IMG/VR virus record: IMGVR_UViG_3300028601_000021
Coordinates: 92,030 to 156,029 of that record
Strand: one strand, 5' to 3'
Source: a virus
Lineage: Duplodnaviria > Caudoviricetes
DNA: 64,000 nt
Position 1 is the first letter of the stretch, and each line of letters begins with the position of its first letter. The position numbers and the translations under genes were made by a program. The notes beneath the pieces were generated by a model that worked only from the letters and a program-made list of their open reading frames with translations, had not been told where the DNA came from and searched no databases. This document shows positions 5,302 through 56,990 of the stretch, piece after piece.

Positions 5302-5337
5302 CTACTAGAGGAGTACCCTTCGGTACTCCTCTAGTAG
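5302..5337. terminator. Perfect 16-bp palindrome between convergent genes
   Basis: ctactagaggagtacc-cttc-ggtactcctctagtag. Confidence 0.75.
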
Positions 5338-19883: not shown

Positions 19884-19912
19884 TTAGCGTCATATAGTTG
19901 AATTAGACAGTG

Positions 19913-19953
19913 TATACTACCGCAGTACCTATTACAGGTACTGCGGTAGTATA
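19913..19953. terminator. Perfect 18-bp palindrome between convergent genes
   Basis: tatactaccgcagtacct-attac-aggtactgcggtagtata. Confidence 0.75.
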
Positions 19954-19963
19954 TATAACTGTT

Positions 19964-25915: not shown

Positions 25916-25936
25916 AAAAATACACACAGAGTATAC

Positions 25937-25977
25937 ACTCCTACTACAGTACCTATATCGGGTACTGTAGTAGGAGT
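25937..25977. terminator. Palindrome between convergent genes
   Basis: actcctactacagtacc...ggtactgtagtaggagt. Confidence 0.7.
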
Positions 25978-25984
25978 ATCTCTA

Positions 25985-41912: not shown

Positions 41913-42033
41913 CGTATCCCTATAATGAGATAAAAGTATACACACTATATGTTATAGGGACACCGTACGGAACTCCGTACTTATTCGATATAAGAGCTAT
42001 ATGCCTTAACATATTTAAAAGAGGTAAATCCAC

Positions 42034-42611: not shown

Positions 42612-42654
42612 CTATACTACCACAGTACCCATTATAGGTACTGTGGTAGTATAG
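42612..42654. repeat. Palindrome; 31-bp core identical to 50024..50054
   Basis: taccacagtacccattataggtactgtggta at 42618..42648. Confidence 0.8.
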
Positions 42655-50016: not shown

Positions 50017-50061
50017 CTACTTATACCACAGTACCCATTATAGGTACTGTGGTATAAGTAG
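50017..50061. repeat. Palindrome; 31-bp core identical to 42618..42648
   Basis: ctacttataccacagtacc-cattata-ggtactgtggtataagtag. Confidence 0.8.
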
Positions 50062-51922: not shown

Positions 51923-51966
51923 GAATAACTCTCCTTAAGTAAGTGGTGGTGGGTAGTGTTCACCCT

Positions 51967-51977: not shown

Positions 51978-51994
51978 GATGAAAAATAATTGCG

Positions 51995-52035
51995 TATACC
52001 ACTACGGTACCTGCTAAAGGTACCGTAGTGGTATA
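51995..52035. terminator. Perfect 18-bp palindrome
   Basis: tataccactacggtacct...aggtaccgtagtggtata. Confidence 0.7.
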
Positions 52036-52039
52036 TACT

Positions 52040-54642: not shown

Positions 54643-55290
54643 TTATTGTAATCTATACATGGGTGTTATCAGTCTATTGTTCCATGTACGTTGAAATACC
54701 CCATATTCACTTTTATATCTAGCAATCTCATTCATCCAATGTAGACATCTTTCGTAGATATTGTAGGTATACTCAGGTATGGATACATATTCACTACAAA
54801 CGAAACATTTCTCTATTTCATTCTTCATGAATCCATTTAGACCTTCTTCTACTTGCTTCTTCATAGAAGCTCTGTACTTTTCCATCATGAATTCATTATC
54901 AGCCCACTGATCAATTATCTGGTGGGTATAGGTGATTACTAGTTCCTGTAATTTATCTCTTCCTAACATCTCATAACGGTGACCATGTATATCCACAGGA
55001 ATAAATATCGCTACACTATTGAGATACTTAGCCAATTCTTCTTTAGACATGACTACATCTTTCTTATTGCTCGGTATAGAAAAAGAAAATTTAATGAATC
55101 GTTTAGAAAGATAAGCCAAAGAAGGAATATACTTATCACTTACGATAATTTCACCTTTAGCTAAAGAACAACATTCTTTATTTATTTCAGTAAAAGTACG
55201 AATAGGGGTAAATAAATCAGTGCAATCATTCACTACTTTATTATGTTTTAACATATCAACAAAACTGATTTTATCACTGATGATCAACAT
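54643..55290 (-). CDS. Hypothetical protein
   Basis: 215 aa, SD GAGG. Confidence 0.55.
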   Translation of the reverse strand: MLIISDKISFVDMLKHNKVVNDCTDLFTPIRTFTEINKECCSLAKGEIIVSDKYIPSLAYLSKRFIKFSFSIPSNKKDVVMSKEELAKYLNSVAIFIPVDIHGHRYEMLGRDKLQELVITYTHQIIDQWADNEFMMEKYRASMKKQVEEGLNGFMKNEIEKCFVCSEYVSIPEYTYNIYERCLHWMNEIARYKSEYGVFQRTWNNRLITPMYRLQ

Positions 55291-55319
55291 GACTACGTAC
55301 CTCTGTATATTACTATGAT

Positions 55320-55430
55320 ATAGGTGATGGGACTGTCACTTAGCAGTATATGGGTGATACTGCTGGAAACTCCTGGTGGGGGTATAGTACTAGCTGCCTC
55401 TATATGGGGTGGCTAGTACTATACTTTTTA
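55320..55430 (+). ncRNA. Candidate multi-hairpin small RNA with intrinsic terminator
   Basis: Upstream TATATTAC (55306-55313); back-to-back hairpins with G-U pairs valid only on +; 19-bp final stem followed by TTTTT. Confidence 0.5.
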
Positions 55431-55459
55431 TACGAAAAATATGATCCTGCATATAATCA

Positions 55460-55503
55460 TACAGTGGACACTACTTACTTTGGTGTAAGTAGTGTCCACT
55501 GTA
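55460..55503. terminator. Perfect 19-bp palindrome after 55520..56368
   Basis: tacagtggacactacttac...gtaagtagtgtccactgta. Confidence 0.7.
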
Positions 55504-55519
55504 TATCGCGTGTGGTAGA

Positions 55520-56368
55520 TCAGGATTTAACGAACAAAGACGCCACTTCGATATTAGAAGTACGTTTCAGATACTTTTCTACAGTACCCACACCTTTATG
55601 GGTATTGTATTCCGATTTCCATAATTTACCTCTAGACAACCTAGTGTTTACCTTAGCATAAAGATTTGGTTCTCTGTGCCAATAATAGGTAATACACATA
55701 GCTATCTGATATGGTACATTTCTTGCTAAATTATCCTTTAAAGATAAGTTCCTATCATAGAAACCCATGATACTTTTGTAGACATCAGAGTGATTTTCTT
55801 TAGTCCACTTCATGAGATATTTGGCAGTAGTGAGTTGTATTTGAGCAGAACCATATGCACCTTTATGAGGTACAGGATTTCTACCCAATTCACTCTCTGC
55901 AGCCATAGTCTCTACTACCAGTAGTTTTAGACCAGTAGAACTCTTGATGTGAGGTAACCGTTGGAATACGGCACTTATCGTCTGTAGGAGTTTTACTTGA
56001 TCCATTGGTTCACCACCAGTCCATTTCTTTATCACTATAGGCTTTACATCACTGGTGACGTAGCGTATAGCTAATGGACTATTCGTTGGTCGTACTTCGG
56101 ATGTAGAGTTACTGGGCACTACTACATCATCCACTTTGGGGATCGGTACCACAGGAGCACTTAAGAGATGGGTATTCCATTTCTCCATAGTAGCCACTGG
56201 TATGTCGCAGGTTTTATCTCTAGGCATTCCTGTATTAGGAACTACTAGTAACACTACGGCTATTGATATTGTAAACACCCAATGTATACTGTTTGTTAAA
56301 TTGTTAAACAAGTTAAATACTCCTTTGTCGTTCCGTACACGATGAGTATCCGAGTCGTATACGTCCAT
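55520..56368 (-). CDS. Membrane-anchored lysozyme-like / lytic transglycosylase-like protein
   Basis: TM segment then ETMAAESELG (putative catalytic Glu), AYGSAQI..TA and WKSEYNT..G. Confidence 0.55.
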   Translation of the reverse strand: MDVYDSDTHRVRNDKGVFNLFNNLTNSIHWVFTISIAVVLLVVPNTGMPRDKTCDIPVATMEKWNTHLLSAPVVPIPKVDDVVVPSNSTSEVRPTNSPLAIRYVTSDVKPIVIKKWTGGEPMDQVKLLQTISAVFQRLPHIKSSTGLKLLVVETMAAESELGRNPVPHKGAYGSAQIQLTTAKYLMKWTKENHSDVYKSIMGFYDRNLSLKDNLARNVPYQIAMCITYYWHREPNLYAKVNTRLSRGKLWKSEYNTHKGVGTVEKYLKRTSNIEVASLFVKS

Positions 56369-56463
56369 CTAAACTAGTTTATTAAAGTGCAAGAATAACG
56401 ATGACCCACATTCATAATCACCTCCTTACTGATATTAATTACAGATTGCTCTATTCTCAATAT

Positions 56464-56474
56464 AGTAATATATA
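56464..56474 (-). promoter_or_regulatory. Early-promoter-like motif TATATATTACT
   Basis: Exact repeated motif. Confidence 0.65.
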
Positions 56475-56519
56475 CGTGTGATATAGTGAGTGACACTTTA
56501 ATAAATAAAACTAGATAAC

Positions 56520-56990
56520 TTATCTACTTTGAGATAGTACTTCGTATTCATCTAATACGATCACATTGTTATCTAAGCTAGGTTCAGTTTTGATGAGATT
56601 AAAATATCGTCTGATGTTTTTCCAGTCTATACCGATCTGGTAGCCATCATCGAGTTTAAAGGATTTTAAAGTTATACCTACAGATTTATCATCGATATAG
56701 TAGTCAGCGTAGGCTTTAGGACTATTGGACCATTCCTTCTGCTCGGGATACTCATTTATAGCATCGAAATGTAATCCACGTACGGCACACCATTCTACTG
56801 CAGCTTTTAAAGACTCATCGGCACGACAAGTCCAAAGCATCAACTTAAAGCCCAATTGCTTCAGTTGTAGTAAGGTAGGGATAGCTTCTGGATTACATCT
56901 ACCAATTTCAGGAAACTCAGCTCCTGATAAGGTAATAGTAGAATCAAAGTCTACAGCTATCCATTTGTTTTTAGTATCTGGTGCGCTCAT
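56520..56990 (-). CDS. HAD-superfamily phosphatase (BT0820-like)
   Basis: IAVDFDSTI, LWTCR and KAYADYYIDDK. Confidence 0.85.
   Translation of the reverse strand: MSAPDTKNKWIAVDFDSTITLSGAEFPEIGRCNPEAIPTLLQLKQLGFKLMLWTCRADESLKAAVEWCAVRGLHFDAINEYPEQKEWSNSPKAYADYYIDDKSVGITLKSFKLDDGYQIGIDWKNIRRYFNLIKTEPSLDNNVIVLDEYEVLSQSR

Follow-up and report, generated by a model that had tools for sequence, protein, structure and literature searches.

A candidate antisense small RNA gene between two early minus-strand genes of an uncultured phiKZ-like jumbo phage

Does a gap between two minus-strand genes of a giant phage encode an RNA of its own, and if so, on which strand and with what effect? We analyzed a 64-kb stretch of DNA (the window) that forms the end of a 156-kb IMG/VR virus record, which is estimated to be ~54% complete. 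A 229-nt gap (55291-55519) separates two minus-strand genes that code for proteins of 282 and 215 aa. An initial annotation had proposed that this gap contains a stand-alone plus-strand RNA that is antisense to its neighbours, is made early and serves as a protein sponge or decoy. We found that the element is conserved, is paired in a manner specific to the plus strand, has the anatomy of a terminator at one end and has no coding capacity. The best explanation is a stand-alone antisense gene for a small non-coding RNA, placed on the plus strand within an early minus-strand operon, a reading to which we give a probability of roughly 60%. The transcription of this putative RNA, its start, its timing and its role are proposed below from features of the sequence.

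PHROG matches assigned the record to a phiKZ-like jumbo phage and included a split RNA polymerase beta subunit, phiKZ-type virion proteins and a tail sheath. The source runs that contain the phage DNA are landfill and wastewater metagenomes. Pfam and PHROGs searches with the genes next to the gap did not return an informative function. The minus-strand features that frame the candidate are as follows.

55520..56368, minus strand: gene for the 282-aa protein (phrog_3108, function unknown), with a consensus early promoter upstream
55459..55504, minus strand: separate perfect 20-bp palindrome hairpin, 15 nt past the stop codon of the 282-aa gene
54643..55290, minus strand: orphan gene for the 215-aa protein, which opens a run of six closely spaced genes

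The early promoter of the 282-aa gene lies at ~56450-56476 on the minus strand and scores 32.0 bits. We found no conserved minus-strand promoter inside the gap between the 282-aa and 215-aa genes, and early mRNA therefore very probably crosses it. The six-gene run extends on the minus strand from 55290 down to 52040 and closes with a hairpin just ahead of the next early promoter.

The neighbouring proteins have a few features of their own. The 215-aa protein belongs to no family, and its residues 24-96 are weakly similar (E of 1e-10 to 3e-5) to a domain of which giant proteins of 1253-3053 aa contain 5-7 copies. The 282-aa protein has an N-terminal hydrophobic segment and a C-terminal E-S ... 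G-S-A-Q-I-Q pattern that recalls what we take to be lytic transglycosylase motifs. In the 6.4-kb neighbourhood, conservation over 100-200 nt peaks at 56670-56880 (minus strand), within a gene for a 156-aa protein (phrog_1238). Identity to three lineages is 0.95-0.97 there, above the coding expectation for this region, and an overlapping nucleotide-level element could be hidden in the gene.

The palindrome at 55459..55504 had been described as a hairpin of the adjacent gene, separate from the candidate RNA, and it is indeed a member of a genome-wide family of gene-end hairpins. It shows Watson-Crick compensatory changes in relatives and has a U-run on neither strand. The record contains 58 intergenic palindromes with stems of 14-25 bp, most of them at most 5-30 nt from gene ends. 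Many have words in common, such as TATAC-TAC-GTAGTACC, and those between convergent genes are bidirectional. Examples in the window lie at 5302-5337, 19911-19955, 25935-25979, 42612-42654, 50017-50061 and 51992-52038.

Folding of 55320-55432 on the plus strand predicted three short hairpins and a 19-bp stem followed by TTTTTATA. The parts of the candidate element are listed here.

55304..55313, plus strand: partial early (virion RNA polymerase) promoter core, TgTATATTAC against the consensus TATATATTAC, from a weight matrix
55309..55322, plus strand: invariant unpaired stretch ATTACTATG-N-TATA, running GG into hairpin 1; contains TATG and TATAGG
55323..55340, plus strand: hairpin 1, a predicted 6-bp stem (GGUGAU/GUCACU) with G-U pairs and the loop GGGACU
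55341..55365, plus strand: hairpin 2, a predicted 8-10-bp stem with the 7-nt loop AUGGGUG
55367..55381, plus strand: linker and hairpin 3 (CUCC-UGGU-GGGG), a predicted 4-bp stem at 55370-55381
55382..55424, plus strand: terminator stem-loop from the fold and a terminator scan, 19-20 bp, with 8 G-C pairs, 3 G-U pairs (window version) and a 5-nt loop
55425..55432, plus strand: U-tract and TTAT-type tail TTTTTATA, invariant in all relatives

The initial annotation had described these parts accurately. TATATTAC is present on the plus strand at 55306-55313, and the plus-strand fold recovered the hairpins, the short stem and the 19-bp stem with its T-run where they had been placed. The repeated motifs are also real: TATATGGG occurs at 55347 and 55401, and TGGG occurs at 55328, 55351, 55377 and 55405. 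TATATGGG is as frequent across the window as chance predicts (4 found, 4.0 expected), and its second copy is not kept in relatives.

Thermodynamic folding gave a lower minimum free energy for 55320-55432 on the plus strand (-51.8 kcal/mol) than on the minus strand (-33.8 kcal/mol), but both strands are far more stable than shuffled sequence, and the z-scores (-6.5 and -6.7, respectively) do not pick a strand. The plus-strand structure has 38 pairs and no A.C mismatch. Seven pairs are G-U, including three in the long stem, and each of these would turn into A.C on the minus strand. Such G-U pairs had been taken as a sign of RNA structure on the plus strand. The comparison of six versions described below bears this out, but the asymmetry in a single sequence is not predictive genome-wide. 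Among the 58 long intergenic hairpins, G-U asymmetry taken hairpin by hairpin is a poor guide to which strand is transcribed (8 vs 10 in minus-strand contexts), and T-run asymmetry is a moderate one (14 vs 4 in minus-strand contexts). Since the z-scores are alike on both strands and the G-U asymmetry is not predictive, the strand call rests on comparative data.

We identified relatives through protein searches with the two flanking genes, which returned close relatives at 86-93% identity. Their contigs provided fifteen loci in which the RNA region is present and the genes are arranged alike, and these loci contain six distinct versions of the region that come from three or four close lineages only. 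Searches for more relatives with neighbouring proteins showed that the lineage is small, with clusters only at 62% identity or more, and no distant syntenic relatives of the 215-aa protein were found. Only 13% of the columns vary across 55306-55430, compared with 64-71% of third codon positions in the flanking genes and 60-93% of columns in the adjacent spacers. The edges of the block are sharp, with 60% of columns varying in the 15 nt before it and 69% in the 28 nt after it. The block is the second most conserved 100-nt window within 6.4 kb. We conclude that 55306-55430 is under purifying selection.

Conservation takes different forms along the block. The 5' domain (55314-55381) is nearly invariant, loops included, and the terminator stem covaries while its loop drifts, a layout that is typical of small RNAs. 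Hairpin 1 is identical in every relative, and so is its loop. In hairpin 2, one lineage has an A to G change in the loop and one lineage has lost the outermost U-G pair; the G-run of hairpin 3 has 4 or 5 G among relatives. Because the versions are few and close, covariation is confined to the terminator stem, and hairpins 1-3 have no covarying pairs.

The long stem contains five variable pairs. All five are paired on the plus strand in each of the six versions, and three are broken on the minus strand. The changes run from A-U to G-C (two lineages), from U-A/A-U to U-G/G-U to C-G/G-C, and from U-G/G-U to U-A/A-U, with two central G-U pairs becoming A-U in two lineages. The sequence AGTACT, present in both arms, is replaced in both arms of one lineage by AGTGCT, which gives a tandem G-U on the plus strand and two A.C mismatches on the minus strand. 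Another lineage has AGCGCT in both arms, a full compensation for which AGTGCT is the intermediate from AGTACT. Where only one side of a long-stem pair has changed (four cases), the change is always A-to-G on the plus strand and gives G-U there and A.C on the minus strand. The 38 pairs hold up across the six versions, with 99.6% of the cells in the four-helix structure paired on the plus strand and 82.3% in its mirror on the minus strand, where seven pairs are never or seldom standard; these counts are biased towards the plus strand because the structure was taken from the plus-strand fold. The data suggest a discrete structured element of ~105-125 nt on the plus strand, opposite to the neighbour genes. 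Conservation, plus strand-specific covariation and a plus-strand terminator together support such an element, and the proposal of a stand-alone feature antisense to its neighbours held up on these three counts.

The same pairs bear on an explanation in which the functional molecule is the minus-strand mRNA. In that case, 55291-55458 would be a structured leader of the 215-aa gene or a processed fragment, and the features of the plus strand would be by-products. The region lies inside a minus-strand operon, and read-through transcripts must carry it since no conserved minus-strand promoter lies between the genes. The minus strand also still folds an 8-bp and a 13-bp hairpin, and the leader contains C-rich tracts and AGGAG, an arrangement resembling the ACCCACC-then-AGGAG order found 23-49 nt before eight other phage starts. 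In addition, the non-coding RNAs detected in phiKZ by Grad-seq are sense-strand UTR fragments (PMC8545117). However, seven pairs of the structure become A.C mismatches on the minus strand, where the L009 lineage gains two adjacent mismatches in the main stem. The consensus fold energy is -33 kcal/mol on the minus strand vs -57 kcal/mol on the plus strand, and the invariant T5 adjoins the stem on the plus strand only. We consider it unlikely that the minus-strand leader is the functional molecule.

The C-rich tract (ACCCACC or ACCCCACC) is a recurrent feature of this phage. It occurs 23-49 nt before eight start codons, with eight sites oriented with the gene and one opposite. Four sites lie in the window on the minus strand (16674, 39254, 41829 and 51954) and four lie upstream in the record; the site at 51954 is conserved in relatives. 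One possibility is that the tract works within the leader, for example by enhancing translation or as a site for recognition.

The 3' end of the plus-strand element is well defined and has the form of an intrinsic terminator. A terminator scan called the long stem and T-run on the plus strand. After the stem, 6 of 7 positions are T on the plus strand and 0 of 7 on the minus strand, which is the strongest wrong-way asymmetry among the 58 long intergenic hairpins. Terminators in phiKZ consist of a hairpin and TTAT (PMC10914365). The 19-20-bp stem with TTTTTATA likewise combines a stable, G+C-containing stem with a directly adjoining U-run/TTAT, and compensatory change on the plus strand keeps the stem in the six versions. 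The 3' end of the RNA would probably fall at ~55428-55430. Sequence conservation extends ~10 nt beyond this expected end. In 55425-55445, the T5 tract behind the terminator stem precedes ATAC(C)G and then an A5-TAT that does not vary, so that pairing between T5 and A5 is possible on either strand.

The terminator is the best-supported part of the element, and it could in principle act alone. The locus would then be a DNA-level or insulating element without an RNA product: a one-way terminator against stray antisense transcription, a single-stranded DNA hairpin signal or a replication priming site. Single-stranded DNA hairpins tolerate G-T mismatches just as RNA tolerates G-U, and no promoter could be assigned to the candidate. 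Yet this explanation does not account for the near-invariant 68 nt ahead of the terminator, and the nearest plus-strand genes end 5 kb away, behind a bidirectional hairpin of their own. GC skew shows no inflection at the site, which also led us to reject a replication origin. An element that functions without an RNA product is very improbable.

We found no indication that the element codes for a protein. A 30-codon plus-strand frame measures 30, 30, 22, 30, 14 and 20 codons in the six versions; the three short forms (14-22 codons) arise from a stop codon or from the loss of 1 nt in the G-run, and the shared part contains no synonymous change. This truncation and the absence of synonymous change argue that the frame is not coding. 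A 103-codon plus-strand frame runs across the indel-rich spacer.

The candidate also did not match known RNA families. Rfam was scanned three times, with 151 nt by themselves, with the entire window under gathering thresholds and with 3 kb at an E cutoff of 10. No family was found, and the sub-threshold matches were microRNA-type hairpin noise only, with E of 0.07 or higher. A search for similar DNA in 50,697 phage records returned no match. Exact-pattern scans, three in viral contigs and one in metagenome contigs, returned nothing from collections that exclude near relatives by design. A covariance model (R1) applied to the whole 156-kb record and to the 158-kb record of a distant relative hit generic hairpins only, with no paralogue or homologue. 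None of the runs listed for the locus is an RNA run. Four wastewater runs labelled cDNA are probably DNA; they are available as contigs and provided scattered low cover across the whole 5 kb, which speaks neither for nor against expression.

We characterized the promoter motifs of the phage and compared them with the 5' end of the element. TATATTAC is enriched in upstream regions of the genome (13 regions vs 1 expected), and aligning oriented intergenic sites produced the early-promoter consensus TATATATTAC-N5-TGA. Scores of 21-33 bits mark thirteen sites as good fits; every one is a minus-strand site, and most precede a start codon by 50-110 nt. The one plus-strand site among the fourteen used for training is a poor fit (8.3 bits). 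Sites in the window include the following.

60000, 56472, 51975, 41910, 35655 and 31659, minus strand: early-promoter sites, of which 51975 is invariant in relatives

Early promoters of phiKZ-like phages have a long AT-rich consensus, with transcription starting at a set point 6 nt downstream. The early promoter of phage AR9, AAATATATATTAT-N6-G, is read by the virion polymerase, and the AR9 polymerase does not tolerate even single promoter deviations (PMC5312081). TATATATTAC-N5-TGA is clearly the counterpart of this motif. The TATATTAC site at 55306-55313 scores 9.4 bits and ranks 27 genome-wide, among intragenic noise, with TG in place of TA upstream and TAT in place of TGA downstream. In three relative lineages it carries three different single mismatches (including TATAcATTAC and TATgTATTAC) and scores 5.0-5.3 bits, whereas those relatives show no change in a genuine early promoter that lies 3.4 kb from it. 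The partial core at 55304..55313 is thus probably not a working early promoter, and the early expression that had been proposed for the RNA is unsupported.

A putative promoter or start region most likely lies in the unpaired ATTACTATG-N-TATAGG that forms the 5' border of the conserved block. Except for one A/T column, 55309..55322 is invariant across the six versions, vs the 60% of columns that vary in the 15 nt upstream. TATAGGT at 55319 is invariant, and its oriented-intergenic ratio is at background (0.14, vs 0.50 for TATAGGG and 0.25 for TATAGAG). Among the early-type and late-like motifs, we found no convincing plus-strand promoter for the candidate RNA. A possible host sigma-70 promoter on the plus strand, TCAACA-16-TATATT, matches at 9 of 12 positions. 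It was rejected since its -10 element mutates in relatives; that phiKZ-like phages, to our knowledge, do not depend on host polymerase also counted against it.

Another motif, TTTATAGAG or TTTATAGGG, precedes the start codons of structural and other genes by 40-55 nt, and 19 of its 23 intergenic matches point in the direction of the gene. It reads TATAG and then AG or GG, and its enriched forms are TATAGGG and TATAGAG; the TATAGGT at 55319 only approximates this late-like motif. It often directly follows a gene-end hairpin to give a terminator-promoter cassette. Examples lie at 41953, 48018 and 7789 of the window and upstream in the record at -64919, -47933 and -84717 (window-relative). This motif is possibly a middle or late promoter.

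We propose the following model for the small RNA. It would span ~55317-55323 to ~55429 on the plus strand and would consist of a sequence-constrained 5' domain, with three hairpins and G-rich loops, and a structure-constrained intrinsic terminator. The early mRNA very probably spans the 282-aa gene, the 215-aa gene and the five genes that follow, and the RNA would be complementary to ~110 nt of its intercistronic leader. Action in cis is most likely because the whole RNA is complementary to that leader. Pairing with the leader would take place a short way ahead of the 215-aa gene's ribosome-binding site; as delimited, the RNA stops ~20-30 nt short of this site and does not overlap it. The resulting long duplex may lead to cleavage or decay, or convergent transcription may interfere instead. 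Expression of the downstream early genes would then be uncoupled from, or fall below, that of the upstream gene, probably later in infection. We put forward a specifically cis-antisense small RNA as a tentative proposal. The rest of the probability that we assign to the small RNA gene belongs to cases in which trans action, or a constraint on both strands, accounts for the invariance.

A cis-antisense RNA does not need an invariant sequence, so the invariance of the 5' domain points to an extra constraint: the RNA may have a trans target or bind a protein, or the complementary leader on the minus strand may itself be functional. The main role of the RNA might be to act in trans or bind protein, with the GGGACU and AUGGGUG loops and ACUCCU recognizing other RNAs or a protein and the antisense position being incidental. 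Conservation of the 5' domain in sequence, loops included, is not required of a purely cis-acting antisense RNA. ACUCCU, within 55367..55381, is complementary to the usual ribosome-binding site of the phage, AGGAGU, and AGGAGTTT, the complement of the ACUCCU element, is found 11-15 nt before seven phage start codons. Exact complementarity of at least 8 nt to phage translation-initiation regions is more frequent than for shuffled sequences (46 vs 21.7 +/- 6.0), and the matches include AGGAGTTT at the seven ribosome-binding sites and CACCCA-type 5' UTR tracts.

The 8-mer excess, however, comes mostly from shared motifs, namely the ribosome-site complement and words of the hairpin family. In a windowed duplex test, the real RNA was only ~2 SD better than shuffles and early-gene leaders paired no better than others (p = 0.75); unrestricted duplex folding against phage targets was uninformative. 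The lack of an Rfam family, of a paralogue in the genome or the distant relative, of more than two GGA motifs and of CRISPR-repeat arrays like hairpin 2 also weighs against a main role in trans, which we judge to be quite improbable. One elaboration is that the RNA is a trans regulator of a nucleus-forming jumbo phage. Its GGG loops and ACUCCU would pair with ACCCACC tracts and AGGAGU sites in many phage or host leaders, or it would titrate a UGGG-binding protein. We see this as a long shot. If it were true, one small RNA would reset the translation of a whole message class at the early-to-late switch.

We compared the candidate to known systems, beginning with the roles that had been suggested for it. 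As in the CsrB, RsmY and RsmZ sponges, several hairpins show a short G-rich motif in or near their loops. Here, however, the repeated motif is UGGG, and the GGA that defines those sponges (A-N-GGA) occurs only twice, once in a loop (55330) and once in the linker (55365), vs usually five or more in loops; the Csr and Rsm models of Rfam did not match either. We therefore rejected a CsrA/RsmA sponge. RNA anti-CRISPRs are solitary CRISPR-repeat mimics found in phages. The candidate shares with them the form of a small stand-alone hairpin RNA, and the GGAAAC after hairpin 2 recalls the 3' handles of repeats. In contrast to a repeat, the hairpin-2 pattern was not present in repeated copies in any contig scanned: the genomes of 185,579 species contained 19 single matches, against ~17 expected by chance (a hand estimate from collection size and pattern specificity). 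An anti-defence decoy that mimics a CRISPR repeat was rejected as well.

P22 sar and lambda OOP are untranslated cis-antisense RNAs of ~70-110 nt from phages, which end at an intrinsic terminator and are complementary to an operon mRNA. sar pairs over the ant ribosome-binding site, and OOP over the 3' end of cII. The candidate is likewise short, intergenic, directed against its operon, equipped with an intrinsic terminator and fully complementary to the operon mRNA. Unlike these RNAs, it covers neither a coding region nor a ribosome-binding site as delimited, no promoter can be assigned to it, and it has no sequence or Rfam relationship to them. sar and OOP also have host-polymerase promoters, and phiKZ-like phages have their own polymerases. 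By analogy with sar, OOP and the late antisense transcripts of AR9 (PMC5312081), a cis-antisense function is most likely.

Closer parallels in setting come from giant phages. phiKZ has four antisense RNAs with mapped starts (PMC10914365), as well as a ~100-nt PHIKZ298/297 intergenic RNA and a 5' UTR-p40 RNA, both of them sense-strand UTR fragments by Grad-seq (PMC8545117). Like the RNAs of phiKZ and AR9, the candidate comes from a giant phage with two multisubunit RNA polymerases, is intergenic, ~100 nt long and strongly folded, and has a hairpin-then-TTAT terminator. It differs from those experimentally detected RNAs in that it is known from sequence alone and has no detectable sequence similarity to them. 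The timing of gene expression in nucleus-forming giant phages is only partly understood, and we know of few non-coding RNAs from lytic phages and almost none from nucleus-forming giant phages. As of 2021, 21 phage non-coding RNAs had been described (PMC8545117). The candidate is backed by conservation and strand-specific compensatory change, beyond a fold alone, and it offers a small, concrete object for asking whether giant phages shut early operons by antisense RNA. Phage antisense regulators are known as a kind, to which this uncultured phage probably adds another putative member.
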